A DNA stretch of 53,519 bases from Candidatus Yanofskybacteria bacterium RIFCSPLOWO2_01_FULL_42_49 (GCA_001795615.1 MGKI01000008.1:1-53519); one strand, 5' to 3'. Positions 6,385 through 46,766 are shown, counted from the first letter of the stretch. The notes: generated by a model from the sequence alone, not told the origin. A program made the numbers and translations.

Positions 6385-6416
6385 AAAAAACAGGTTATCT
6401 TGATAATCTGTTTTTT
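6385..6416 (+). terminator. Hairpin with T-run after tRNA-Arg
   Basis: aaaaaacag...ctgtttttt with inner gttatc/gataat pairing, followed by gttttc. Confidence 0.6.
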
Positions 6417-6518
6417 GTTTTCTCATCGGAGAAAATAAACTATTCCATTGCGTAAAATCGCAGATAGTAATACTATTTTCTTTAGTTCTGGATACGGTAA
6501 GACAGAGGCAGGGTTCGA

Positions 6519-6869
6519 GTGGAAAGAAAAAACCGCGCTGAAACGATCGGCAGAAAATCAGAGAATAAAGTTCACCGCGCTCTTGATATTTTACGGTATC
6601 GTTGGAAAGAAGTTGTGAGGTTTATTCACGCTGAAAAAAATGGGGAACTCGATCGGGAACACATTGACTTTCTCATCATACTTCGTTCCAATCTGTCACT
6701 GGCATTGCAAGTTAAGTCCTCCCGCTGGCGCGCAAAGATTCATCTAAAAAAGTATCCCCATATTAAGGGCGTCATCTGGATAAGAGAACAGGACACGCCG
6801 CAAGAAATAGCAGAACGAATTAAAAAAATTATCCTTTTATACTACAAAAAGATAAAAAGGGTCAGTTAA
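6519..6869 (+). CDS. Hypothetical small protein, possible PD-(D/E)XK nuclease fold
   Basis: 116 aa with a GTG start. The pattern GRKSE...HIDFLII...LQVKSS fits E...D...(Q)xK of YraN/Hjc-like nucleases. Similarity is weak. Confidence 0.45.
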   Translation: MERKNRAETIGRKSENKVHRALDILRYRWKEVVRFIHAEKNGELDREHIDFLIILRSNLSLALQVKSSRWRAKIHLKKYPHIKGVIWIREQDTPQEIAERIKKIILLYYKKIKRVS

Positions 6870-8371: not shown

Positions 8372-10204
8372 GTGAAACCAAATAAAATCATCGCCGTATT
8401 TTTCTTAGCTGGAGTCAGTGTGTTGTCTTTTTTTACCGTTAAAGCATTGGCTGATATTTCCGATATCCAATACCCCGTCTCCCAGCTTGGAAATTGCACA
8501 AGTGAAACCGACTGCCGAAGCTATTGCGATAAACCCGAAAACATTACGGCTTGTTTGAATTTTGCCGAACAGAACAATTTGATGTCTAAAGAAGAGATCG
8601 AAATGGCTAAAAAGTTCTCGGCCGTTGGTAATAAAGGCCCCGGCGGATGCACGGGTAAGGATTCTTGTGAAACATATTGCAACGATATTTCTCATATCGA
8701 CGAGTGCGTTTCGTTTGCCGAACAAAACAACTTAATGCCGCCGGACAAATTACGCGAAGCTCAAAAGGTCCGCGATGCTATAAAGCGGGGTGCCAAACCT
8801 CCGGCTTGCGGCAGCAAAAAATCCTGTGACAGTTACTGTGAAGATCCAAGCCACATGGAAGAATGCATTACCTTTGCCTCTGAGGCCGGCCTGATGGAAG
8901 GCAAGGAGAAAGAAGACGCCCAAAAAATGCTATCAGCCATGAAAAAAGGAATTAAACCACCGCCTTGCCGAGGCAAACAGGCTTGCGATGAATATTGCCA
9001 ACAGCCGGACAACATGGAAACATGCATGAATTTTGCAATTGAAGCCGGATTTATGGGCGATAAAGAAAAAGAAGACGCCCAAAAAATGCTATCAGCGATC
9101 AAGAAAGGAGTAAGGCCGCCTAATTGCAGAGGGCGGGAGGAATGCGACAGTTATTGCCAAAGCGATGAACATTTTGAAGAATGCACTAATTTTGCGGAAG
9201 CGGCCGGTTTTATGAATGCCAGTGACGCGGAAATGGCGAGAAAAACAAAAGGCAAGGGCCCCGGCGGATGCAAGGGTAAAGAAGAGTGCGAATCATTTTG
9301 CAATAATCCGTCCAACCAGGAAACGTGTTTTAAGTTCGCTGAAGAGAATGGCATGATACCGGAAGAAGAACTCCAAAAAATGAAAGAGGGGATGAGCCGA
9401 ATGCGCGAAGATGTTGATAAAATTCCGAGTGAAGCAAAAGACTGTCTGAAATCTGCTCTGGGAGAAGAAACGGTTAATAAAATCCGGTCGGGAGAACTTA
9501 CGCCTGGACCTCAACTGGGAAATGCAATTCAAGATTGTTTCCGAAAAATGCCTCAGCAACCGGAAAATATGCGCCTGCCTGCCGGCAGGCAGGGCGGGCA
9601 AGGTGAACAAGAAGGAATGCCGCCACCGGAAGGAAGAGAGTTTCGCGGCGGTCCCGGAGGTTGTTCTACTCCCGAAGAATGTCAAGATTACTGCTCCCAA
9701 AATCCGGAAGCTTGTCAAAATTTTCAAGAACCTGAACATGGACAAAGACCGATGGGTCCACCCGGTCCGGATCAAAATTTCCAACCGCCGAGAGGGCCAA
9801 GAGAAGGGGAAGAACCGCACGAGCCGCCTTTATTTGAACGGCGGATGCCATCTGGTGAACAGATGCCTCCGAAATTTCAGCGGCCAGAACAAGAGATGTA
9901 TAGACCCGGCACTGAGGAAGGATCTTACCCTCCAAGTTATGATGGCCAGCGGCCACCACAAGAATTCAATCAGCCCATGATGCCCAACCAACCGCCGATT
10001 GGAAGTGGGGTAATTCCGCCACCTGAATTTGACCGTCAGGTACCCATGGAACAATTCCAGCCATCCGAACCCATGCCACAGATAGAACAGCAACCGCAAG
10101 GAGAGATAGCGCCACCACCTCCTCCACCGTCAGAGCCGGCGCCTCAATCTCTGTTAAACAACAAATACCTCGGGGCTATTTTCAGACTCCTTTCGGGTAA
10201 CTGA
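8372..10204 (+). CDS. Secreted cysteine-rich tandem-repeat protein with a Pro/Gln/Glu-rich tail
   Basis: 610 aa with a GTG start and a signal/TM segment. About 7 repeats of about 52 aa follow the pattern C-x6-C-x3-C-x9-C-x2-FAE(Q/A)N.LM. The C-terminal 200 aa are P/Q/E-rich. Confidence 0.75.
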   Translation: MKPNKIIAVFFLAGVSVLSFFTVKALADISDIQYPVSQLGNCTSETDCRSYCDKPENITACLNFAEQNNLMSKEEIEMAKKFSAVGNKGPGGCTGKDSCETYCNDISHIDECVSFAEQNNLMPPDKLREAQKVRDAIKRGAKPPACGSKKSCDSYCEDPSHMEECITFASEAGLMEGKEKEDAQKMLSAMKKGIKPPPCRGKQACDEYCQQPDNMETCMNFAIEAGFMGDKEKEDAQKMLSAIKKGVRPPNCRGREECDSYCQSDEHFEECTNFAEAAGFMNASDAEMARKTKGKGPGGCKGKEECESFCNNPSNQETCFKFAEENGMIPEEELQKMKEGMSRMREDVDKIPSEAKDCLKSALGEETVNKIRSGELTPGPQLGNAIQDCFRKMPQQPENMRLPAGRQGGQGEQEGMPPPEGREFRGGPGGCSTPEECQDYCSQNPEACQNFQEPEHGQRPMGPPGPDQNFQPPRGPREGEEPHEPPLFERRMPSGEQMPPKFQRPEQEMYRPGTEEGSYPPSYDGQRPPQEFNQPMMPNQPPIGSGVIPPPEFDRQVPMEQFQPSEPMPQIEQQPQGEIAPPPPPPSEPAPQSLLNNKYLGAIFRLLSGN

Positions 10205-12232: not shown

Positions 12233-12385
12233 AAAATCTCTAATCTCGAAACCCTAATCTCTAAATAATATCAAAATTCAAAATTATGTCCCCTTGGGAC
12301 ATCTCCCGAAGGGAGAAAAATTTTAAAACTTTTGAGATTTGACATTTGAGTTTATTTAGAAATTAGAGATTAGAATTTAGAGATT
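12233..12385. repeat. AT-rich palindromic 'word' element, family I copy 1, with two GC mini-hairpins at its centre
   Basis: The left arm aaatctctaatctcgaaaccctaatctctaaa is complementary to the right arm tttagaaattagagattagaatttagagatt. The centre holds atgtccc-ctt-gggacat and ctccc-gaa-gggag. Its arms are almost identical to those of 33314-33435. Confidence 0.85.
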
Positions 12386-12395
12386 ATCGTATAAC

Positions 12396-14887: not shown

Positions 14888-15859
14888 ATGGATAACTTCT
14901 GGCAAAAACTGGAGAGGCCCTTTTTTGTTTTAGCGCCGATGGCAGATGTGACGGATATGGCATTCCGCCAAATTATCGTCTCCTGCGGCAAACCGGATGT
15001 TTTATATACTGAATTCGTGTCATGCGATGGATTGTGCTCAGAAAAAGGCAAGCTTAAATTAATGCCGCATCTAAGATTCAAAGAAAACGAAAGGCCTATT
15101 GTGGCTCAGTTTTTTGGTTCAAAGCCGGAGAATTTCTACACATGCGCTCAACTGGCGGTGGAGCTTGGTTTTGACGGAATTGACATAAACATGGGTTGTC
15201 CCGACAAAAGCGTAGAGAAACAAGGTGCGGGAGCTATGTTAATAAACAATCCTAAACTTGCCCAAGAGATAATAAGGGAGACGAAAAAAGGCGGAGACAA
15301 GTTGCCAGTGTCTGTTAAAACTCGCCTCGGTTACAACAAAATAATCACAAAAGAGTGGGTATCTTATTTATTAGAATCTGAACCCGCCGCAATTATCATT
15401 CACGGCCGGACAAGAAAAGAAGTGTCATCCGTTCCCGCTCATTGGGATGAAATAGGGGTTGCTAAAGAAATAGCTAAAAATGCTAAAACATTGATAATTG
15501 GCAATGGCGATGTCGTGGATTTGAACGACGCAAAGAAAAAAGCCAGAGATTATAACTTAGACGGTATTATGGTTGGTAGGGGAATATTTACAAATCCATG
15601 GTTTTTTTCCGACGAAGGCGGACCCGTCTTTAGCGGAAGTGACTCTTTTAAGAAGACACCCGAGCAAAGAATAGAATTAATGCTTGAACATTTAGATAAT
15701 TTCGAAAAGTTGTGGGGTTCTAACGGAAAATTCGATACGATGAAAAAGTTTTTTAAGGTTTATATATCTGGATTTGACGGAGCTAAAGAATTAAGAACGA
15801 AACTGATGGTAGTTAAAAACAAACAAGAAGTTGTGGATATATTGGCAAAGACGATGTGA
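14888..15859 (+). CDS. tRNA-dihydrouridine synthase
   Basis: LAPMADVTDMAFRQI, DINMGCP and the TIM-barrel Dus pattern (HGRT). Confidence 0.88.
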   Translation: MDNFWQKLERPFFVLAPMADVTDMAFRQIIVSCGKPDVLYTEFVSCDGLCSEKGKLKLMPHLRFKENERPIVAQFFGSKPENFYTCAQLAVELGFDGIDINMGCPDKSVEKQGAGAMLINNPKLAQEIIRETKKGGDKLPVSVKTRLGYNKIITKEWVSYLLESEPAAIIIHGRTRKEVSSVPAHWDEIGVAKEIAKNAKTLIIGNGDVVDLNDAKKKARDYNLDGIMVGRGIFTNPWFFSDEGGPVFSGSDSFKKTPEQRIELMLEHLDNFEKLWGSNGKFDTMKKFFKVYISGFDGAKELRTKLMVVKNKQEVVDILAKTM

Positions 15860-18177: not shown

Positions 18178-18180
18178 CCG

Positions 18181-18260
18181 TTTTAGGGATTAGGTTTTAG
18201 GGATTAGGTTTTAGGTTTTCATTGACCCTAACACCTAACACCTAAAAGCTAACAACTAAC
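18181..18260 (+). repeat. Intergenic word-repeat hairpin
   Basis: The G/U-rich left arm (ttagggattaggtt x2, ttaggtttt) faces a C/A-rich right arm (ccctaaca cctaaca cctaaaa). Complementarity is imperfect. Confidence 0.7.
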
Positions 18261-18374
18261 ATTAAAGTTCGTGCTTCGGTTAAAAAAATGTGTATTAATT
18301 GTAAGTTAGTAAGGCGAAAAGGTCGCCTCTATTGTTTGTGCAAAAACCCTAAACACAAGCAACGACAAGGATAA
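18261..18374 (+). CDS. rpmJ: Ribosomal protein L36, copy 1 (ATT in the start position)
   Basis: Not in the ORF track because it is under 60 aa. The reading ATT AAA GTT CGT ... gives (I/M)[36 protein letters not shown]. There is no in-frame ATG, GTG or TTG upstream before a stop. Confidence 0.7.
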
Positions 18375-18388
18375 ATAATGTGTAACAC

Positions 18389-18454
18389 AAATCTACGAAT
18401 GGCATGCGAATACTACGAATAACTATTTGTAGCATTCGTGTAAATTTGTAGATT
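18389..18454 (+). repeat. Word-repeat hairpin between the two rpmJ copies
   Basis: aaatctacgaat...gcgaatactacgaata pairs with tatttgtagcattcgt...atttgtagatt. Several pairs are G-U, so the hairpin is better in plus-sense RNA. Confidence 0.7.
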
Positions 18455-18482: not shown

Positions 18483-18596
18483 ATGAAGGTACGAGCTTCG
18501 GTTAAAAAAATGTGTATTAATTGTAAATTAGTAAGGCGAAAGGGTCGCCTCTATTGTTTGTGTAAAAATCCTAAACACAAGCAACGACAAGGATAA
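18483..18596 (+). CDS. rpmJ: Ribosomal protein L36, copy 2 (ATG start)
   Basis: [37 protein letters not shown]. Has the Zn-ribbon CxxC...CxC...H pattern. Confidence 0.9.
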
Positions 18597-18636
18597 ACTC
18601 GATATTTCGAAATTTCGATATGTCGATATTTCAATA

Positions 18637-25790: not shown

Positions 25791-25910
25791 ATTAGAAAAA
25801 TTAACCTAATTATTCTAATTAATCTAATTATTCTAAACTTTTGAAATTTATAATTTGAGATTCCTGCCTGCCGGCAGGCAGGTGTTTAGAAATTAGAAAT
25901 TAGAAATTTA
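25791..25910. repeat. AT-rich word hairpin with a central 20-bp GC palindrome
   Basis: ctaattattctaattaatctaattattctaaa faces tttagaaattagaaattagaaattt. The centre is cctgcctgccggcaggcagg (25863-25882). Confidence 0.8.
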
Positions 25911-31135: not shown

Positions 31136-32263
31136 ATGTCAAATCCTTTGGTCACAATAAACCTCGTGGTTCTCAACGGTGAAAAGTACATCCGCCATTG
31201 TTTGGATGCGGTTTTGGCGCAGACATATCCGCATAAGCTGATCGAACTAAACATTTTAGATAACGGCTCAACGGATAAAACAAAGGAAAATATTAGAGAT
31301 TCGAAATTAGAGATTAGAGATTCCGAGTTTTTCACTTTCAATCTCATTGAAAGTCCGAAAAATCTCGGTGTTTGGCCGGGACAAGAAGAATTACTAAAAC
31401 ACACGAGTGGCAAATATATAGTATCCTTGTGCGTTGATGTATTAATGGACAAGGACTTTATTAAAAATGCGGTAGAAGTAATGGGGAAGGATGAAAAAAT
31501 CGGCGCGCTCCAGCCGAAGATATACAGCTTCGAATTGGGAATTATGAATAAAGAATCAAGAAGTGAAAACCATAATTCATTATTCCCTATTCATTATTCA
31601 CGCATTATTGACACTTGTGGTTTTAAAATTTTCCGATCACGCCGTGTCATAAACATTGGCCACGGCGAGAAAGACCATGGCCAGTACGACAACCTCGGAG
31701 AAATTTTTGCCGTTGAAGGAGCAGCGCCGGTATTCCGCAAAGAAGCCCTAAAAGACTGTCAAATTAAATTAACGACATCGGATGGCCGTTGGACATCCGA
31801 TGTCCCCGCAACTGAAATCACCGACCACGACTACTTCTGGTACGGCGACGATCTGGATCTGGCTTGGCGGATGAGGTTATTCGGATGGAAAGAAGTATTC
31901 GCGCCCAATGTAATCGCATGGCATGACAGACAGACAACGAAATCGATCAAGAAAAGCTGGTCCGACTACATCACCAGAGTTCCGGTGCGCAGGCAAATTC
32001 CCATCAAAAAACGCCGTCTCGACTGGAGAAATTTGCGTTGGACATTAGTTAAAAATGATTATATAATAAACATTCTGAAAGACTTGCCCCAGATCATGTT
32101 AAGAGAGATAGCCGTGCTTGGATACGCAGTTTTATTTGAACCGGCGGTGCTTAAAGAAATACCGGCATTTTTCCGATATTTACCCAAAATGCTGAGAAAA
32201 AGAAAAGAGATAATGAGGCGGACAATCATAACGCCAAGAGAAATAAGGAAATGGATCAATTAG
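31136..32263 (+). CDS. Glycosyltransferase family 2
   Basis: VTINLVVLNGEKYIRHCLDAVLAQTY, LDNGSTDKT and a DxD-like YGDDLDLAWR. Several in-frame repeats and hairpins. Confidence 0.85.
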   Translation: MSNPLVTINLVVLNGEKYIRHCLDAVLAQTYPHKLIELNILDNGSTDKTKENIRDSKLEIRDSEFFTFNLIESPKNLGVWPGQEELLKHTSGKYIVSLCVDVLMDKDFIKNAVEVMGKDEKIGALQPKIYSFELGIMNKESRSENHNSLFPIHYSRIIDTCGFKIFRSRRVINIGHGEKDHGQYDNLGEIFAVEGAAPVFRKEALKDCQIKLTTSDGRWTSDVPATEITDHDYFWYGDDLDLAWRMRLFGWKEVFAPNVIAWHDRQTTKSIKKSWSDYITRVPVRRQIPIKKRRLDWRNLRWTLVKNDYIINILKDLPQIMLREIAVLGYAVLFEPAVLKEIPAFFRYLPKMLRKRKEIMRRTIITPREIRKWIN

Positions 32264-33315
32264 ATTTTAACTCCCATGATTTTCAAAATAAAAAGAAGCG
32301 AAAATGGGGTCGCTTTTTTTTGCTTGCCGGATTTTTAGCCGTAAGCTATATAATTTTTAACACGGCTCTATTTAATAAAGAATTTGAAATAAAAAACGAA
32401 TTCGCCGAAGAAGATAAGTTTGAAGCGGCCTGGCTCAAGAAATTTGCCGGTTTATTGTTCTTCAATCAAAACCACGCCGAAGAAATAGACAAGAACTACA
32501 TCATGCCAGAAAAAGAGCCAAACCGACTGGACATACTGATCCTCGGCATAAGGGGAGAAGGCGACGAGAACGCTGAAGAAGGCGGAGCATTGCTTACCGA
32601 TACAATGATGGTGTTTAGCCATGACCAACTTACCAAAAAATCTTCTCTAGTTTCAATCCCCCGGGATTTCTATGTCAAAATAGGCTCAAATAAAAATAAA
32701 ATAAACTCCGCTTACGAATACGGACTTCTGAGAAAAGAAGGGGCTGATTACGCAAAGAAATTAGTATCTCAAATAACAGGCGTTTATATAGATAACGCCG
32801 TCGTGGTAGATTTCTCTTCGTTTGAAAAATTAATAGACCAGCTCAGAGGCATAGATATAACTCTGACCAAATCATTCCGCGAAGAAGGCCAGTGGGGATA
32901 TGCTTTTGAACTGCCGGCAGGCGAAAACCACCTGAACGGACAAAATGCTTTGTATTATGTCCGCTCGAGATATTCGTCTAACGATTTTGACCGCGCATTC
33001 AGACAACAGCAGGTATTGTTCGCGATAAAAAACAAAGTAACAACCCTGCATTTGATTTCTGATCCTATAAAAATTCTATCCGTAATTAATACATTAAGCC
33101 AAAACATAAAAACCGACATCAACATCTGGGATGTGAAAGAAATAATTGATCTTGCCAAAGAAGTGGACACCTCGCCGGCCATGTTTAAGAAAGAAGTCTT
33201 GTCAACGGAAAACCTTCTCTACCAGTCAACTGGCCCTCAAGGAGCTTATATTCTATTGCCGCAAGGAGATAGTTTTGACCAAATCAAGCAGTTATTTCAA
33301 GAAATAATAAAATAA
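32251..33315 (+). CDS. LytR-CpsA-Psr (LCP) family protein
   Basis: An N-terminal TM segment, then LILGIRGEG...ALLTDTMMV...SIPRDFYV and Y.RSRY. Confidence 0.85.
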   Translation: MDQLDFNSHDFQNKKKRKWGRFFLLAGFLAVSYIIFNTALFNKEFEIKNEFAEEDKFEAAWLKKFAGLLFFNQNHAEEIDKNYIMPEKEPNRLDILILGIRGEGDENAEEGGALLTDTMMVFSHDQLTKKSSLVSIPRDFYVKIGSNKNKINSAYEYGLLRKEGADYAKKLVSQITGVYIDNAVVVDFSSFEKLIDQLRGIDITLTKSFREEGQWGYAFELPAGENHLNGQNALYYVRSRYSSNDFDRAFRQQQVLFAIKNKVTTLHLISDPIKILSVINTLSQNIKTDINIWDVKEIIDLAKEVDTSPAMFKKEVLSTENLLYQSTGPQGAYILLPQGDSFDQIKQLFQEIIK

Positions 33316-33435
33316 ATCTCTAATCTCAAAACCCTAATCTCTAAACAAATCCAAAAACCCAAATCTCAAAAACGTTTTGAATTTTGATATTTGAGATTAT
33401 TTAGAGATTAGAAATTAGAATTTAGAGATTAGAAT
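33314..33435. repeat. AT-rich palindromic 'word' element, family I copy 2
   Basis: The left arm aaatctctaatctcaaaaccctaatctctaaa is 30/31 identical to 12234-12264. The right arm is ...tttagagattagaaattagaatttagagattagaat. It fills the whole spacer from stop codon to start codon. Confidence 0.9.
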
Positions 33436-33436
33436 A

Positions 33437-34237
33437 GTGACTTCCATCATCATCGTCAACTACAAAAATCCGCCGTTATTGAGATTGTGTTTGTCGTCGT
33501 TAAAAAGAGCCCTCTCTGCTAACTTCAAACACGAGATATTGGTCGTTGATATTGCTTCTATTCCCGAAACAAGAAATGTGATCAAAGAATTTCCAGGGGT
33601 CAAAATAACAACATTCAAAGAAAACATCGGCTACACAAAAGGCGTTAATGAGGGGGTCAAGGCTTCATCTGGAGACTATATACTGATACTTAATCCCGAC
33701 ATCGTGCCCATGACAAAATCCATTGAGGGGCTTACTTCATACCTGGCAGCCAATACCAATATCGGCCTTGCCGGACCTCGACTCTTAAATTTTGACGGTT
33801 CGGTCCAAAATTCCGCCTTCCGATATTATACGCCCTTAACAGTACTCTGCCGGCGCAGTCCTTTAGGCCATACCCCTTTCGGTAAAAAAATATTGAACAA
33901 ATTCGTAATGGCAGATAAAAAATTAAACGCACCCTCGGAAGTTGAATGGCTGATGGGTTCTGCTATGCTGGCTTCTCGAAAGGCAATAGATAAGGTGGGA
34001 CTGATGGACGAAAATTTTTTTATGTACATGAGCGATGTTGACTGGGCAAGGCGGTTCTGGGAAAATGGATTCAAGGTGGCATATTATCCGTTTTCGGAAA
34101 TGTACCATTATCACAAGAGAAGTTCGAAAGGCCGCTTCGGTCCATTAGATATTTTCATGAATAAACAGAGCAGATTGCATTTAGTTGATGCGGTAAGATA
34201 CTTTAGGAAATACGGAATAAAAATTTCTAATACCTAA
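33437..34237 (+). CDS. Glycosyltransferase family 2
   Basis: GTG start. Contains TSIIIVNYKNPPLLRLCLSSL, ILVVD and GYTKGVNEG. Confidence 0.85.
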   Translation: MTSIIIVNYKNPPLLRLCLSSLKRALSANFKHEILVVDIASIPETRNVIKEFPGVKITTFKENIGYTKGVNEGVKASSGDYILILNPDIVPMTKSIEGLTSYLAANTNIGLAGPRLLNFDGSVQNSAFRYYTPLTVLCRRSPLGHTPFGKKILNKFVMADKKLNAPSEVEWLMGSAMLASRKAIDKVGLMDENFFMYMSDVDWARRFWENGFKVAYYPFSEMYHYHKRSSKGRFGPLDIFMNKQSRLHLVDAVRYFRKYGIKISNT

Positions 34238-34343
34238 TATCTAATTACTAATGAAATGTCTAATGCTCAAATGTCCAATTAGAGATTTGAAATTAAACAT
34301 TTAGAATTTTATTAGAAACTAGGAATTAGAAATTAGATATTTT
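34221..34343. repeat. AT-rich palindromic 'word' element, family II copy 1
   Basis: aaatttctaata...ctaattactaatgaaatgtctaat faces ...attagaaactaggaattagaaattagatatt. The left arm begins inside the last codons of the GT2 gene. It shares words with 42513-42630. Confidence 0.8.
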
Positions 34344-35648: not shown

Positions 35649-36137
35649 ATGAAAATTATTATACTTCAAAATATTAAAGGACTCGGACAGATAGGGGACA
35701 TTAAGAATGTCTCTGACGGTTATGCCAGAAATTTTTTGTTACCGAGAAAAATGGCTAAACTGGCAACTGAAGCTTCAATAAAAGAAGTTGACGCGTTAAA
35801 GAAAAAACTAGAAGTGGCTCAGAAGCTAGAGAAAGAAAATGCTTCAAAGGTAGCCGAACAATTGAAAGATGTCGTGTTGGAATTTACAAGGAAAGCGACC
35901 AAGACTGGCAAAATCTATTCGGCTGTTACCAAGGAGGATATCGCTGAAATACTGACCAAACAACTCTCCGCCGAAGGCGGGCCAGCCTTTGGCTGGAAGA
36001 TTGAACCAAACTCAGTTAATCTTGAGGGGCATGATGGAGGCCACATCAAACAGCTCGGTGAACATCTCGTCAAAATAGAACTCGCGCCAGACGTGGTTGC
36101 GGAGGTCAAGGTCAAAATTTCACAGGAAGAAAAATAA
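35649..36137 (+). CDS. rplI: Ribosomal protein L9
   Basis: MKIIILQNIKGLGQIGDIKNVSDGYARNFLLPRKMA. At 162 aa it is longer than usual because of an in-frame hairpin segment. Confidence 0.92.
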   Translation: MKIIILQNIKGLGQIGDIKNVSDGYARNFLLPRKMAKLATEASIKEVDALKKKLEVAQKLEKENASKVAEQLKDVVLEFTRKATKTGKIYSAVTKEDIAEILTKQLSAEGGPAFGWKIEPNSVNLEGHDGGHIKQLGEHLVKIELAPDVVAEVKVKISQEEK

Positions 36138-36157: not shown

Positions 36158-36306
36158 AGACTCTAGCCATCCTCGACACGCCTCCGGTTCCCCCGCGAGG
36201 GACCTCGGCTACTTTCGCCCAACCTTTTCTCGGGCAGTTAAACGATTATACTGCCCTCGACCGTGCAAAAGGTTGGATCTCTAGTGTCTCGTCATGACTA
36301 GAGTCT
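36158..36306 (+). ncRNA. Structured element 'A' (unknown class), homologous to 46599-46762
   Basis: Closing stem agactctag/ctagagtct, with inner helices cccaacctttt/aaaaggttgg and gggcagt/actgccc. The 118-nt core is about 80-85% identical to the reverse complement of 46621-46738, and differences are concentrated in paired positions. Stops occur in all frames shared by the two copies. Confidence 0.6.
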
Positions 36307-36781
36307 TAAGCTACCTTGCTTGGCGTTCGACAGAAACTTCTCTGAAAACCTGTCACTATTGGAATCCATCGCCAGCTGGCGGACCGGTTAAACCTCGTCC
36401 TCTTCCTCAACTCATCAAGTGATTCGAAGATAATAAGGCCTCGCTTCCTTGATGGCTTAGCTTGTACTTGTTGGCCAGCGAGAAGCCATCCCTATTTGAA
36501 TCACTATGACAAATAGATAGCAGTTGCAGATGAGCGACGCGATTTTTCTGGGAAACCGAGTCGGGGATGTCAGGTTCGGTCGAGCTCAGCTCGATCCGCA
36601 TGGCCTGACAGGGGTGACCCCGAGCGGTCAGAAAAATTAGGAGTGAATCGCAACTGCTCTATGAGGAGTCCGTGATGAAAATGAGGATGGCTTCGAACGA
36701 AAGATGAGGAATCGTGATGAGAAGACGACAAGGTCGAACAAAAATATATATCTTTTACGCTATTCATTGTATAATTAAATC
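36307..36781 (+). other. ORF-free, GC-enriched, highly self-complementary region (candidate ncRNA or long leader)
   Basis: No credible ORF. Hand count in 36541-36600 is 34/60 G+C. Nested long-range helices are agcagttgc/gcaactgct, atttttctg/cagaaaaat, tgtcagg/cctgaca and tcgagc/gctcga. Four tgaGGA/ttaGGA motifs lie in 36638-36712. Confidence 0.5.
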
Positions 36782-39659: not shown

Positions 39660-41531
39660 ATGCAAATCAGAAACATCGCAATTATTGCTCACGTTGACCA
39701 TGGGAAAACAACCCTTACTGATGCCCTAATGAAACAAACAGGTATGGTTGAGGAGGGATTCAGTATGGACATAAACGCGCTTGAGAAAGAGCGCGGTATT
39801 ACTATTTATGCCAAGAACGCCTCTCTTTTTTACAAAGATACGAAAATAAATATCGTCGACACTCCCGGCCATGCGGATTTCGGTTCAGAAGTAGAGCGAG
39901 TCTTAAGATCAATTGACTCTGTGTTACTTATCGTGGACGCCCAAGAGGGACCGATGCCCCAGACCAAATTTGTTTTAAAAAAGTCTCTGGAACTGGGGCT
40001 AAAGCCGATACTGGTTATAAACAAGATAGACAAGCCGGCGGCTAAGCCCAATGAAGCCCACGAAAAAGTTCTGGAACTTTTCATGGATCTAGGGGCCAAC
40101 GACGAACAGCTGGACTTTAAAACCATCTATGCCAACGGACGAGCGGGAATAGCAAAATTAAAAATGAAGGACGAGTCAAAGGATTTGTCTCCTTTGCTTG
40201 ATCTGATACTCAAAGAAGTGCCGCCGGCGCCTTCTGATACTTCAGCTCCGTTGCGTTTTCAGCCATTTAATCTTGGGTACGATAATTTTTTGGGCCGGCT
40301 TGGTATCGGCAGAGTTTGGTTCGGGACTATGAAGGTAGGGGATAGTGTATTTATAAAAAAGCCGACAGAGATTCTAGGGGCGGCTAAAGCACACCCCCAA
40401 GAAACTTCTCCGAGCACTGGTGAAACTCGCACGGGAAAAATAACTAAATTATTTAATTTCCGAGGGATGGAGAGGAAAGAAACCGATGAAGCACAAGCCG
40501 GCGATATCGTCATGATTGCCGGACTTCCGGACATATACATCGGAGAAACCGTATGCGCCTCTCCTGATGTGGAGCCCTTGTCGGCTATCAGCGTAGATGA
40601 GCCGACCATATCTTTGAACTTTCTGGTTAACGACTCTCCGTTCGCCGGAAGAGACGGAAAGTTCGTGACCAACAGACAATTAAAAGAACGACTGGAAAGA
40701 GAGCTTGAGGTCAATATCGGGCTGAAAATTTCCGCCGAAGGCGGATCCGCCTCTGGCGGAGATTTTTCAAGTACTGCTTACAAAGTTTACGGCCGAGGAG
40801 AACTCCACATCGCTATCCTGCTTGAAAATATGAGAAGAGAGGGCTATGAGCTTCAGGTCTCACAACCGCAGGTGATTATCAAGGAAATAGACAACCAAAA
40901 AATGGAACCATTTGAAGAGGCGCTTATTGACGTTCCTGAAAATCTGTCCGGAGTGGTTATACAAAAACTCGGCAAGCGAGCCGGAAAAATGATGAATATG
41001 GTCCAACACCACGGCGAAGTTCGCATTACTTTTGAAATACCGACACGCGGTCTTTTGGGCTTCAGGAACGAGTTTATGATTGATACTAAAGGCGAGGGGA
41101 TACTCGCAAGCCACTTCATCGGCTTTCGACCCTATGCTGGGGAAATAAAAAAGAGAAGCGTCGGTTCTATGGTTTCTATGGAAACAGGCAAGGCGCTTGG
41201 TTTTTCGTTATATAACCTCCAGGACAGAGGCAAGTTATACATCGGGCCGACTGCCGAGGTCTATGAGGGGATGGTCATTGGTGATGTATCAAAAGGAAAC
41301 GACATGTCCGTTAACCCTATCAAAGGTAAAAAATTAACGAATATGCGGGCTTCGGGTTCAGATGAAAATATAATTCTCGTCCCTCCGTCTCCGATAACCC
41401 TTGAGACCGGTCTGGAAATTATGCAAAACGACGAATACCTCGAAGTAACGCCTAACAACGTCCGGCTGAGAAAAAGATACCTTACGGAAAATGACAGAAT
41501 AAGAGCAGCCAGAAGTTCAGCTTCTCAATAA
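39660..41531 (+). CDS. typA: Translational GTPase BipA/TypA
   Basis: IRNIAIIAHVDHGKTTLTDAL, DTPGHADFG, NKID and GRGELHIAILLENMRREG. Confidence 0.93.
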   Translation: MQIRNIAIIAHVDHGKTTLTDALMKQTGMVEEGFSMDINALEKERGITIYAKNASLFYKDTKINIVDTPGHADFGSEVERVLRSIDSVLLIVDAQEGPMPQTKFVLKKSLELGLKPILVINKIDKPAAKPNEAHEKVLELFMDLGANDEQLDFKTIYANGRAGIAKLKMKDESKDLSPLLDLILKEVPPAPSDTSAPLRFQPFNLGYDNFLGRLGIGRVWFGTMKVGDSVFIKKPTEILGAAKAHPQETSPSTGETRTGKITKLFNFRGMERKETDEAQAGDIVMIAGLPDIYIGETVCASPDVEPLSAISVDEPTISLNFLVNDSPFAGRDGKFVTNRQLKERLERELEVNIGLKISAEGGSASGGDFSSTAYKVYGRGELHIAILLENMRREGYELQVSQPQVIIKEIDNQKMEPFEEALIDVPENLSGVVIQKLGKRAGKMMNMVQHHGEVRITFEIPTRGLLGFRNEFMIDTKGEGILASHFIGFRPYAGEIKKRSVGSMVSMETGKALGFSLYNLQDRGKLYIGPTAEVYEGMVIGDVSKGNDMSVNPIKGKKLTNMRASGSDENIILVPPSPITLETGLEIMQNDEYLEVTPNNVRLRKRYLTENDRIRAARSSASQ

Positions 41532-42512: not shown

Positions 42513-42630
42513 AAATTTCTAATTACTAATTCCTAATTTCTAAATATAATGTCTAATCCTTAAATTTCTAAAATTGGTCATTAGAAATTGGGGATTTGAT
42601 TAGAAATTAGATATTAGAAATTAGTAATTC
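42513..42630. repeat. AT-rich palindromic 'word' element, family II copy 2
   Basis: aaatttctaattactaattcctaatttctaaatataatgtctaat faces attagaaattagatattagaaattagtaatt. It shares aaatttctaat, ctaattactaat, atgtctaat and attagaaattagatatt with 34221-34343. Confidence 0.8.
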
Positions 42631-45386: not shown

Positions 45387-46766
45387 CTACAAGTAGTCAT
45401 TTGGATTTACTGTATTATTATAATTGAAATACAGTTGACCATTCTTTTCATTAATATAGGTGAAAAACTCTTTATATATGCTCAAGTGGACATGAGAACC
45501 AGTTGAAAATCCAGTTGAGCCCTCATAACCAATTATATCACCGGCTTTAACCTGGCTGCCAACTCTTACAAACTCAAAAGCGCTCAGGTGGCCGTAAACA
45601 CTGACTAAATCATACGGCGGATGCTTGATAGCCACCCAATTTCCCCATCCGTCATTTTTGCCGTTAGCAACAACCTCTCCGTCGCCTATCGCCTTAACCG
45701 GGCTACCGTAACCGGAAGCCATATCAATGCCGTTGTGAGGCGCTCCGCCGTAAGGTCCGCGCCTTGAGTTACATCGAGCATATCTGGTACATCCGTATCC
45801 TTGAGTAATTCTATAGTCTTCTTCCGGCCACTTGAAAAGATCGGTTCCCTTTTTAGGCAAGTTGTGCGCTTCCACACGAAGAATATACAGTCCACCCTGT
45901 ATAATCTTGGTCTCAATCTCTTTCATCTCCGTAAAAAAGAGCGACTGTTTTCTCTCCACTTCTTCAAGCAGCCTTTGATACTCGGCTTCCTGTCCTTTGG
46001 TAACTTTTAGCAAGCCATCTTTTTCTTTTTGGGTACCGCCTAAAGCTAGTTTCTGACTAGACTGCTGGCGATTTAAATTTTCAAGTTCCCGCTTTTTATT
46101 TTCCAGGTTAGATTTATGGTTTTCGTAAGCGTTTTTTGTGGAACGCAAATCGTTGACTAACGAAAGCAGACTTTCGCTGACACTGGTTGCCTGCTGAACC
46201 CGGTTGAGAAAATCAGAGATGTTGGCATTCTTCATCATGGCAACAAGCAGGCTCTCTCTGTCTTGCCGATAAAGTTCAAGCAATAGTTCCCCAATTGCGC
46301 TTTTCTGATATTCAATCCTGCCTTGAGTGGTATATATTTCGTCAGTCGTGTTTTGTATTTCTATGCCCGTGCTGTTGATTTTTTTTATAGTGATATTTAT
46401 TTGGGTTTTAAGGCTATTTATCTGATTCTGGAGAATTGAAATTTCTTTATTCAACGATTCAGCATTGGCGTGTTCTTTAGCAATATTCTGGCGATATTGT
46501 TCGGCTTGCTGTTCAAGCCGTTCTATCTCCTGGCGCAATTGGGAGATTCGTTCATCGTCGGTTTGGGCAGTAGCTGCTGGCACAAAAAAAATCAGCGCAA
46601 AAAAAAGAAGCAAGCCAATTAGAGACACTAGAGACCCAGCCCTTTGCATGGTCGAGGATAGTATAATCGTTTCACTGTCCGAGAAAGGGCTGGGCGAAAG
46701 TAGCCGAGGTTGCACGCTGGGCAACCGGAGGCGTGTCGAAAATTGGCTTGCTTCTTTTTTTTTCAT
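45387..46766 (-). CDS. M23 (LytM-type) peptidase with a coiled-coil region
   Basis: HNGIDMA, GWGNWVAIKH, YGHLS and GSHVHLSI. The longest ORF starts at 46766, where its ATG overlaps the gltX TGA as ATGA. An alternative start at 46649 (MQRAGSLVSLIGLLLFF) would exclude structured element B. Confidence 0.85.
   Translation of the reverse strand: MKKKEASQFSTRLRLPSVQPRLLSPSPFSDSETIILSSTMQRAGSLVSLIGLLLFFALIFFVPAATAQTDDERISQLRQEIERLEQQAEQYRQNIAKEHANAESLNKEISILQNQINSLKTQINITIKKINSTGIEIQNTTDEIYTTQGRIEYQKSAIGELLLELYRQDRESLLVAMMKNANISDFLNRVQQATSVSESLLSLVNDLRSTKNAYENHKSNLENKKRELENLNRQQSSQKLALGGTQKEKDGLLKVTKGQEAEYQRLLEEVERKQSLFFTEMKEIETKIIQGGLYILRVEAHNLPKKGTDLFKWPEEDYRITQGYGCTRYARCNSRRGPYGGAPHNGIDMASGYGSPVKAIGDGEVVANGKNDGWGNWVAIKHPPYDLVSVYGHLSAFEFVRVGSQVKAGDIIGYEGSTGFSTGSHVHLSIYKEFFTYINEKNGQLYFNYNNTVNPNDYL
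46599..46762 (-). ncRNA. Structured element 'B', second copy of the 36158-36306 module
   Basis: A perfect 22-bp closing stem (aaaaaaaagaagcaagccaatt / aattggcttgcttctttttttt) encloses the conserved core. The inner helix is cccagcccttt/aaagggctggg. It lies between the gltX stop and the M23 signal peptide, in the same sense relative to its flanks as copy A. Confidence 0.6.

Follow-up and report, generated by a model that had tools for sequence, protein, structure and literature searches.

A 30-nt double hairpin set in frame in typA, rplI and dus of Candidatus Yanofskybacteria: a probable selfish palindromic DNA element

Three copies of one unit in typA, rplI and dus

The stretch analyzed here (hereafter, the window) is 53,519 nt of DNA, about 42% G+C, from an uncultured Candidatus Yanofskybacteria bacterium of the Patescibacteria, or candidate phyla radiation (CPR). 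Three housekeeping genes on its plus strand carry the same short GC-rich element: typA/bipA (39660..41531, 623 aa; Pfam GTP_EFTU, EFG_C and BipA_C), rplI, encoding ribosomal protein L9 (35649..36137, 162 aa; Pfam Ribosomal_L9_N/C), and dus, encoding a tRNA-dihydrouridine synthase (14888..15859, 323 aa; Pfam PF01207). The best database matches of all three proteins are to MAGs assigned to Candidatus Yanofskybacteria. The initial annotation of the window had described a 14-nt hairpin common to typA, rplI and, with one mismatch, dus, read in one frame (S-A/D-E-G-G) in all three genes, and had taken it for a spreading element. The hairpin is indeed present at all three sites: TCCGCCGAAGGCGG, 14 nt long, is matched perfectly at 35967 in rplI and at 40731 in typA, and the match at 15608 in dus differs at one position. 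The unit is larger than 14 nt, however. A second hairpin directly follows the first in each of the three genes, making a 30-nt two-hairpin module at each site.

The copy in typA (40731..40760, plus strand) is intact, consisting of TCCGCC-GAA-GGCGGA and TCCGCC-TCT-GGCGGA (TCCGCCGAAGGCGGA-TCCGCCTCTGGCGGA), and encodes SAEGGSASGG, residues 358-367 of TypA. In rplI (35967..35996, plus strand), TCCGCC-GAA-GGCGGG and CCAGCC-TTT-GGCTGG (TCCGCCGAAGGCGGG-CCAGCCTTTGGCTGG) encode SAEGGPAFGW; the second hairpin, ccagcc-ttt-ggctgg, is present as originally described. The dus copy (15608..15637, plus strand) stands directly after seven T and is decayed: TCCGaC-GAA-GGCGGA and CCCGtC-TTT-aGCGGA (TCCGACGAAGGCGGA-CCCGTCTTTAGCGGA), encoding SDEGGPVFSG, with four stem positions off the model consensus, two of them breaking pairs. 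Its first hairpin, encoding SDEGG, had been correctly reported, and the degenerate second one had not been listed. All three copies start on a codon boundary, at offsets of 1071 (typA), 318 (rplI) and 720 nt (dus) from the start codon, and their translations share the pattern S-A/D-E-G-G-S/P-A/V-x-G/S-G/W, so that the common reading frame is confirmed. The G+C content of the element is 73%, versus about 42% for the window.

The enrichment of the motif, which the initial annotation had proposed to check, was found against shuffled sequence: allowing up to 2 mismatches, TCCGCCGAAGGCGG has 4 matches in the window versus 0.28 expected, a number reached in 0 of 100 shuffles, and CCGCC-N3-GGCGG at up to 1 mismatch has 7 matches versus 0.65 expected. 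A covariance model of the unit, whose training alignment included the three window copies, gave exactly three matches in the window with filters off (typA, 56.7 bits; rplI, 49.1 bits; dus, 42.2 bits), the next best hit scoring 10 bits. An intergenic "relative" of the hairpin, ctcccGAAgggag at 12303-12315, had also been noted. It is present, with gtcccCTTgggac alongside, but the covariance model does not match it; the candidate at 12288-12315 is therefore ruled out as a family member by sequence, and has only the two-hairpin layout in common. This GC-rich double hairpin forms the center of one of the long, imperfect, AT-rich palindromes of TAATCTCTAAAT-like units that fill the intergenic regions 12234-12386, 33314-33435, 34234-34343 and 42513-42624 (the double hairpin lies in the first).

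Comparison with orthologues shows how the three copies came to be where they are, and we begin with typA. In an alignment of 70 TypA relatives (at least 77% identity), the window protein and P0010 (as SALGGSASGG) alone have the segment, which is absent in 68 of the 70. The nearest empty allele, L001 (90% amino acid identity), reads AAAGATA|GATTTTTC; relative to it, the window typA has exactly 30 extra bases between an Ile and an Asp codon, with nothing duplicated. In L002, typA has this insert as well; the stems are identical, whereas the loops (TTA and TCC) are not. A cluster look-up of the window proteins yielded no further allele without the insert. TypA is thus 10 aa longer here than its nearest relatives, and alignment with E. 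coli BipA (5a9v) opens a gap of 8 residues at the insert, in line with the greater length relative to E. coli BipA that had been noted. The two tandem stem-loops described in typA are likewise real; the A/T runs said to bracket them (gaaaatt and gattttt) are mostly pre-existing target sequence. In the AlphaFold2 model of TypA, which is poor (mean predicted local distance difference test score, pLDDT, of 59.5), two predicted β-strands of domain III flank the insert.

A second in-frame insertion in the same gene, at 40365-40415, belongs to a different family. It is a 51-nt imperfect palindrome encoding TEILGAAKAHPQETSPS, which L001, L002 and E. coli BipA lack (a 17-aa gap) and which P0007-9 and P0012-15 share, with a variable center. 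It, too, lies between predicted β-strands of the model, and both inserted segments have pLDDT below 50, which is compatible with their being loops without being decisive. Other short GC-rich palindromic in-frame inserts occur elsewhere in the TypA and L9 of relatives, among them PSASSGRPV (CCTTCGGCAAGCTCAGGACGTCCTGTA, palindrome CAGGAC|GTCCTG; L140, the TypA of P0017, is among the sources), PSTSSGQ/QIHSTSSGQ, LPTGQAG, TVPPSPENGFSET and ADAPVGSPTTSRRGVI. Several families of palindromic inserts seem to colonize core genes of this lineage.

The rplI segment is found in 4 of 120 L9 relatives, all in one subclade, and the empty allele L138 has TCGGGACTC where filled alleles have TTC plus 30 nt. Window, L001 and L139 have this copy in common in diverged form: its stems are perfect in L139, its loops have drifted in the window, and two stem mutations have occurred in L001. 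The rplI copy is one older insertion that is now evolving freely. L9 had been put at about 12 aa longer than usual; it is longer (162 aa versus about 151-155 aa in most relatives), and the insert explains 8 aa of this.

At the third site, in dus, the insertion recurs. Of 121 Dus relatives, 10 that are scattered over the tree have the codon site NPWFF^N filled, and the nearest neighbors of filled sequences are empty (67-89% identical; 83-89% for five). On a neighbor-joining tree of Dus, the 10 filled sequences need 9 changes. At the DNA level, three empty alleles read tggtttttt^AAT, and of two filled ones, one reads tggtttttt-TCCGCCAGAGGCGGATCCGCCTCTGGCGGA-AAT and the other differs from it in having AAA/TTT loops; the filled/empty pairs compared are 86-89% identical and contain no duplication. 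The loops differ among filled alleles (AGA/TCT, AAA/TTT and GAA/TTT), and a third filled allele (L134:1423-2421) carries a 39-nt nested insertion in loop 1, TCCGCC-GACATAGGCCCGGCTACGCACGGGTCCCTCTCTGAGAAA-GGCGGA, still in frame. Nested insertions of about 36-39 nt in loop 1 were also seen in L065:7580-7647 and L086:6822-6887; loop 1 itself may be a target for other small elements.

Since empty alleles exist among close orthologues of typA, rplI and dus, the segment is an insertion rather than ancestral sequence. SAEGG at the same positions in distant orthologues, the observation that would speak for the contrary, was not seen at the typA or rplI sites and was seen only sporadically at the dus site, where the nearest neighbors are empty.

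Structure, distribution and reading frame of the unit

To follow the element beyond the window, a collection of species-representative genomes was searched with the degenerate 29-nt pattern TCCGCCNNNGGCGGNNCNGCCTNTGGCNG, which fits the typA and rplI copies and leaves the loops free. At least 120 loci match, and they come from about 12 phyla. About half are Patescibacteria of many classes; the other hosts listed are Omnitrophota; Kiritimatiellae, Verrucomicrobiota and Lentisphaeria; Planctomycetota; Ignavibacteria and Bacteroidota; Zixibacteria and KSB1; Elusimicrobia and Firestonebacteria; uncultured Gamma- and Deltaproteobacteria; Bdellovibrionales; Desulfotomaculaceae; Leptospira; and Chloroflexota. 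Among the matches listed, all are metagenome-assembled genomes (MAGs), single-amplified genomes or Candidatus drafts, with no isolate. The matches include 1.6-Mb long-read contigs and a single-cell assembly; therefore, neither binning errors nor one sequencing technology can explain the breadth. At two loci of about 70% GC, chance matches are possible. The flanks are different at every site compared among the listed loci. Outside the seed matches, 928 kb of these loci contain 40 CCGCC-N3-GGCGG hairpins, most of which are half of a two-hairpin unit, versus no more than 7 with any alternative GC-rich stem of 5 bp. The unit is rare in IMG/VR, where 7 stretches contain it, versus 0 and 2 for two composition-matched control patterns; a 36-mer had only a partial match, and no full one, among PLSDB plasmids and none among INPHARED phages. 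These phage and plasmid data are too few to argue for or against a vector.

The consensus of 123 sites is TTY | TCCGCC RRA GGCGGA TCMGCC TYT GGCKGA | RAA, a dyad-symmetric unit of two adjacent hairpins, each with a 6-bp stem and a 3-nt loop. At the stem positions left free by the search pattern, the bases covary inside the same 15-mer (C-G 78, A-T 38 and T-A 3; and T-A 99 and C-G 21), and a model-fitted alignment contains 48 double-sided changes versus 7.5 in shuffles, a signal that collapses in slid controls; since most of helix 1 was preset by the ascertainment pattern, the evidence comes from helix 2. A single long hairpin is ruled out, as the variable positions of stem 2 pair within the 15-mer and not across the dyad; the conserved structure is therefore two small hairpins. 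A search of the window and 17 element-bearing loci against Rfam 15 at gathering scores returned tRNAs only and no family for the element.

On either side of the unit, the flanks are T-rich 5′ and A-rich 3′, a symmetric preference: T(-2) is found in 85% of sites, A(+2) in 82%, and both in 89 of 125 (71%). Since the empty typA and dus alleles already have T(-2) and A(+2), these bases seem to reflect the choice of target and not to belong to the element. In other phyla, copies of the SAxGG unit often sit between short AT-rich tandem repeats, for example at L055, L074, L076, L090 and L108.

About half of the copies lie outside long open reading frames (ORFs); the element is thus found both in genes and in spacers. 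Where it does lie in genes, one frame predominates, as a check of coding occurrences suggested in the initial annotation has shown. The S-A-x-G-G frame (frame 0) is used by 37 of 42 sites in ORFs of at least 300 aa and by 25 of 26 in ORFs of at least 400 aa (p about 3e-13). Outside the window, 63 of 125 sites fall in ORFs of at least 150 aa in loci below 60% GC, and 46 of these 63 are in frame 0. None of the frames of the element contains a stop codon unless a loop supplies one, and translation outside frame 0 would yield PPKADPPLAE or RRRRIRLWR. From this bias we infer that the insert is translated and that the other frames have been removed by selection. The insert length, as had been asked, is a multiple of 3, but this is intrinsic to the 15+15-nt unit and is no evidence of selection; the frame bias is. 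Host genes confirmed by Pfam include RNA polymerase β′ (RpoC), UvrB, Mfd/TRCF (two copies), PheT (two copies), class I and II aminoacyl-tRNA synthetases, DnaJ (in the G/F region), HsdR, ArsA and an α-amylase, and ORFs of up to 1,198 aa are open across the element.

Some copies sit in a wider context. In a Kiritimatiellae MAG (L008:4569-4752 and 6390-6572; L080), the double hairpin lies within an intergenic repeat of about 185 nt with at least 3 occurrences and identical flanks, showing that the 30-nt unit can be a module of composite repeats. At L122:6060-6146, a copy abuts a tRNA-like T-arm (GGTTCGATTCC, minus strand) at a contig end; this copy is possibly inside a tRNA gene, for which ARAGORN calls no tRNA, the contig ending close by.

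The window holds further repeats of other kinds. A 20-nt perfect palindrome, CCTGCCTGCCGGCAGGCAGG, occurs at 9574-9593 inside the ORF 8372-10204, where it is read LPAGRQ, and at 25863-25882 in a spacer with AT-rich inverted repeats flanking it; a partial copy lies at 32911-32922 in the ORF 32251-33315. Two copies of a 135-nt sequence, inverted relative to each other and 83% complementary, lie at 36173-36307 downstream of rplI and at 46605-46739 between two minus-strand genes, and one copy searched had no Rfam match even at E <= 1. At 18180-18245 there are GTTTTAGGGATTAGG-type short repeats, followed by a unit of about 105 nt that is tandemly duplicated (18273-18400 and 18495-18597). Cumulative GC skew peaks around 34-42 kb, and directly beyond typA, at about 41.6 kb, the genes change from the plus to the minus strand, which may be a switch resembling a replication terminus.

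Origin of the element

Based on these findings, we propose that the three sites are probably copies of a very small, non-autonomous, selfish palindromic DNA element. The insertion at typA and dus is a precise 30-nt gain without target-site duplication, and the target lies between T-rich 5′ and A-rich 3′ flanks. The dus site has been filled repeatedly, and one stem sequence is favored over equally stable ones. The stems are kept in the family at large and lost in old fixed copies; there is no maintenance after fixation. The earlier idea of a spreading element inserted in frame is thus supported by presence and absence in orthologues of all three genes, by unrelated sites in many phyla and by the general frame preference. 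As for the mechanism, movement would depend on an enzyme, provided in trans, that recognizes the hairpins as single-stranded or cruciform DNA. Selection would remove disruptive insertions, leaving the S-A-x-G-G frame in genes, where the insert would form a flexible Gly/Ser/Ala loop at tolerant protein positions, and the element would be passed between phyla horizontally. The closest precedent for movement that relies on hairpins and leaves no duplication is the HUH/Y1 transposase family, which moves REP/REPIN and IS200/IS605 elements (see below); by analogy, the mover could be such an enzyme, a tentative assignment that we regard as unlikely to be correct.

Several observations weigh against this proposal. 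All-against-all BLASTP of 2,265 ORFs in the 8-kb neighborhoods of 120 loci found no recurrent gene, the largest family occurring at 7 of the 120, and Pfam assigned the genes between the paired L008 copies to a radical-SAM enzyme, a TIM-barrel enzyme and a GDSL lipase, with no transposase among them. The GTAG/CGTC tag of REP families is absent, and the flank preference is symmetric, unlike the one-sided target of IS200/IS605. Filled rplI alleles are 6 nt shorter beside the element, and filled dus alleles are 12 nt shorter just downstream. The dus DNA downstream of the copy in L130 resembles a clade other than that of its overall nearest neighbor; because this segment looks mosaic, some of the nine dus events may be allele transfer by homologous recombination and not fresh insertion. 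The phylum assignments of the MAGs are as deposited, the cross-phylum sample was ascertained by a pattern that fixes most stem bases, and translation of the coding copies is deduced from their frame bias.

Some of these points would fit spread without any dedicated transposition, by template-switch or microhomology copying at replication stalls in T/A runs combined with homologous recombination of filled alleles after DNA uptake. The small deletions beside the rplI and dus copies, the mosaic segment of L130 and the lack of a linked enzyme near the 120 loci all agree with such copying, as do the missing target duplication at typA and dus and the T-run and A-run flanks, which are usable as microhomology. 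The typA target GATA^GATT, however, is almost without microhomology, and yet the insertion there is exact. Moreover, the same 30-nt boundaries occur at unrelated sites in many phyla, and the dominance of one stem over equally stable ones fits recognition better than polymerase slippage. We consider this explanation rather improbable, though a live alternative.

The unit might instead be a selected functional signal, either a protein-binding or DNA/RNA structural site (for pausing, processing or recombination) or a useful flexible linker gained repeatedly. Its strong conservation across phyla with covariation preserving both stems, a dyad symmetry that suits a dimeric binding protein, and the repeated filling of one dus codon site would be in keeping with function. 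But the element is sporadic among close orthologues, most relatives do well without it, its host genes and positions are unrelated, about half of the copies lie outside long ORFs, and stems are lost in old copies; the T-5′/A-3′ flanks have the wrong orientation for an intrinsic terminator on either strand, and the Rfam search gave no family. We judge a selected signal to be distinctly improbable.

Contamination or misassembly deserves mention since GGC-GGA-TCC is reminiscent of a BamHI Gly-Ser linker and synthetic linkers with the sequence GGSASGG are in use; literature matches for GGSASGG are engineered linkers, no isolate is among the at least 120 genome matches, and the 36-mer has no full match in PLSDB or INPHARED. 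Orthologous copies from independent assemblies, however, differ by point substitutions (typA in the window versus L002; rplI in the window, L001 and L139), rplI copies follow host phylogeny, compensatory stem variants exist, and the element is present in Illumina, long-read and single-cell assemblies with long ORFs open across it, which leaves an artefact very hard to credit. That GC-rich Ser-Ala-Glu-Gly-Gly codons happen to form hairpins can be dismissed almost entirely: a short motif and the frequency of loops rich in Gly, Ala and Ser would favor it, but the shuffle controls, the identical 30-nt layout at three sites, the close orthologues without the segment and the hundreds of differently flanked copies in other genomes speak against chance. 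Artefact and chance are thus excluded by the substitution patterns between independent assemblies and by the shuffle and stem controls.

Relation to known elements and significance

In behavior, the selfish element proposed here recalls most closely, by analogy, the Rickettsia palindromic elements (RPEs; Ogata et al. 2000), which are reportedly palindromic selfish repeats found in frame in unrelated housekeeping genes, translated as extra surface peptides, and present in non-coding DNA as well. RPEs are about 100-150 bp long and confined to Rickettsia. In-frame insertion into unrelated protein genes and absence from orthologues are common to both; the present element differs in its length (30 nt), its unrelated sequence, its occurrence in about 12 phyla and its host, Yanofskybacteria.

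Also close are the mitochondrial GC clusters and double-hairpin elements: GC42 of yeast, with AG target duplication (PMC4478555), the double-hairpin elements of Allomyces (Paquin et al. 2000, as cited in PMC4478555), and the repetitive hairpin elements of sponge mitochondria (PMC2800124). Like the unit described here, these are short GC-rich (double) hairpins in AT-rich compact genomes, found in spacers, in rRNA and occasionally in protein genes, with stems more conserved than loops, and no mobilizing enzyme has been identified for either. They are, however, organellar, and GC42 duplicates AG, whereas the present element is bacterial, is spread over many phyla, makes no duplication and has no sequence similarity to them. 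It is far smaller than RPEs and these mitochondrial elements, and cross-phylum.

Repetitive extragenic palindromic (REP) sequences, with BIME and REPIN, are hairpin repeats mobilized by RAYT (Y1 HUH) transposases (PMC3733652, PMC6006769). They resemble the unit as 20-40 nt hairpin repeats that are often paired, high in copy number, non-autonomous and free of target duplication. In contrast to the window copies, all three of which are intragenic, as are about half elsewhere, REPs are extragenic by definition; they carry GTAG/CGTC at the palindrome end, where the 123-site consensus has TTY 5′ and RAA 3′ without a tag; and they are species-specific with a cognate RAYT in the same genome, typically with REPs on either side, whereas this element has the same sequence across phyla. 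As to a cognate RAYT here, no gene family recurs within the 8-kb neighborhoods of the 120 loci, the part of each genome that was covered.

Palindrome-associated elements derived from IS200/IS605 are about 100 nt or more in length, with a one-sided target and asymmetric ends. Two terminal hairpins, a short target motif, the lack of the usual inverted terminal repeats and the lack of duplication (PMC6006769) are shared features; the dyad-symmetric unit, its symmetric flanks and the absence of TnpA near the 120 loci are differences. Miniature inverted-repeat transposable elements (MITEs) of DDE transposons have terminal inverted repeats and a fixed-length duplication, whereas here the whole unit is two hairpins and the filled/empty pairs contain no duplication. 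The element thus fails the defining features of REP/REPIN, MITEs and RPEs. TIGR-Tas (preprint) is unrelated to it. In our literature search, incomplete in coverage so that an earlier description is possible, no account of such a bacterial element turned up.

The element could even represent a previously unrecognized pan-bacterial class of mobile DNA, possibly with the smallest transposable unit known (30 nt), moved by a structure-specific enzyme or a host process that at least 12 phyla of mostly uncultured bacteria share or exchange, and repeatedly writing the same 10-residue Gly/Ser/Ala loop into essential proteins such as RNA polymerase β′, UvrB, Mfd, aminoacyl-tRNA synthetases, TypA and L9; we hold this broader view to be a real possibility, at somewhat less than even confidence. 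If true, such insertions would quite generally cause proteins to vary in length in the CPR and in other lineages, and in-frame palindromic selfish DNA in essential genes would extend beyond Rickettsia and mitochondria to many uncultured bacteria, with a single 30-nt sequence common to several phyla. With its tiny defined unit, the dus hot spot NPWFF^N and its filled/empty pairs, the element would offer a tractable system for hairpin DNA that moves without its own transposase, and it could mark horizontal contact between lineages in shared habitats. It would also account for some of the short indels that make core proteins of the CPR puzzling, with a bearing on alignment, phylogenomics, gene calling and structure prediction.

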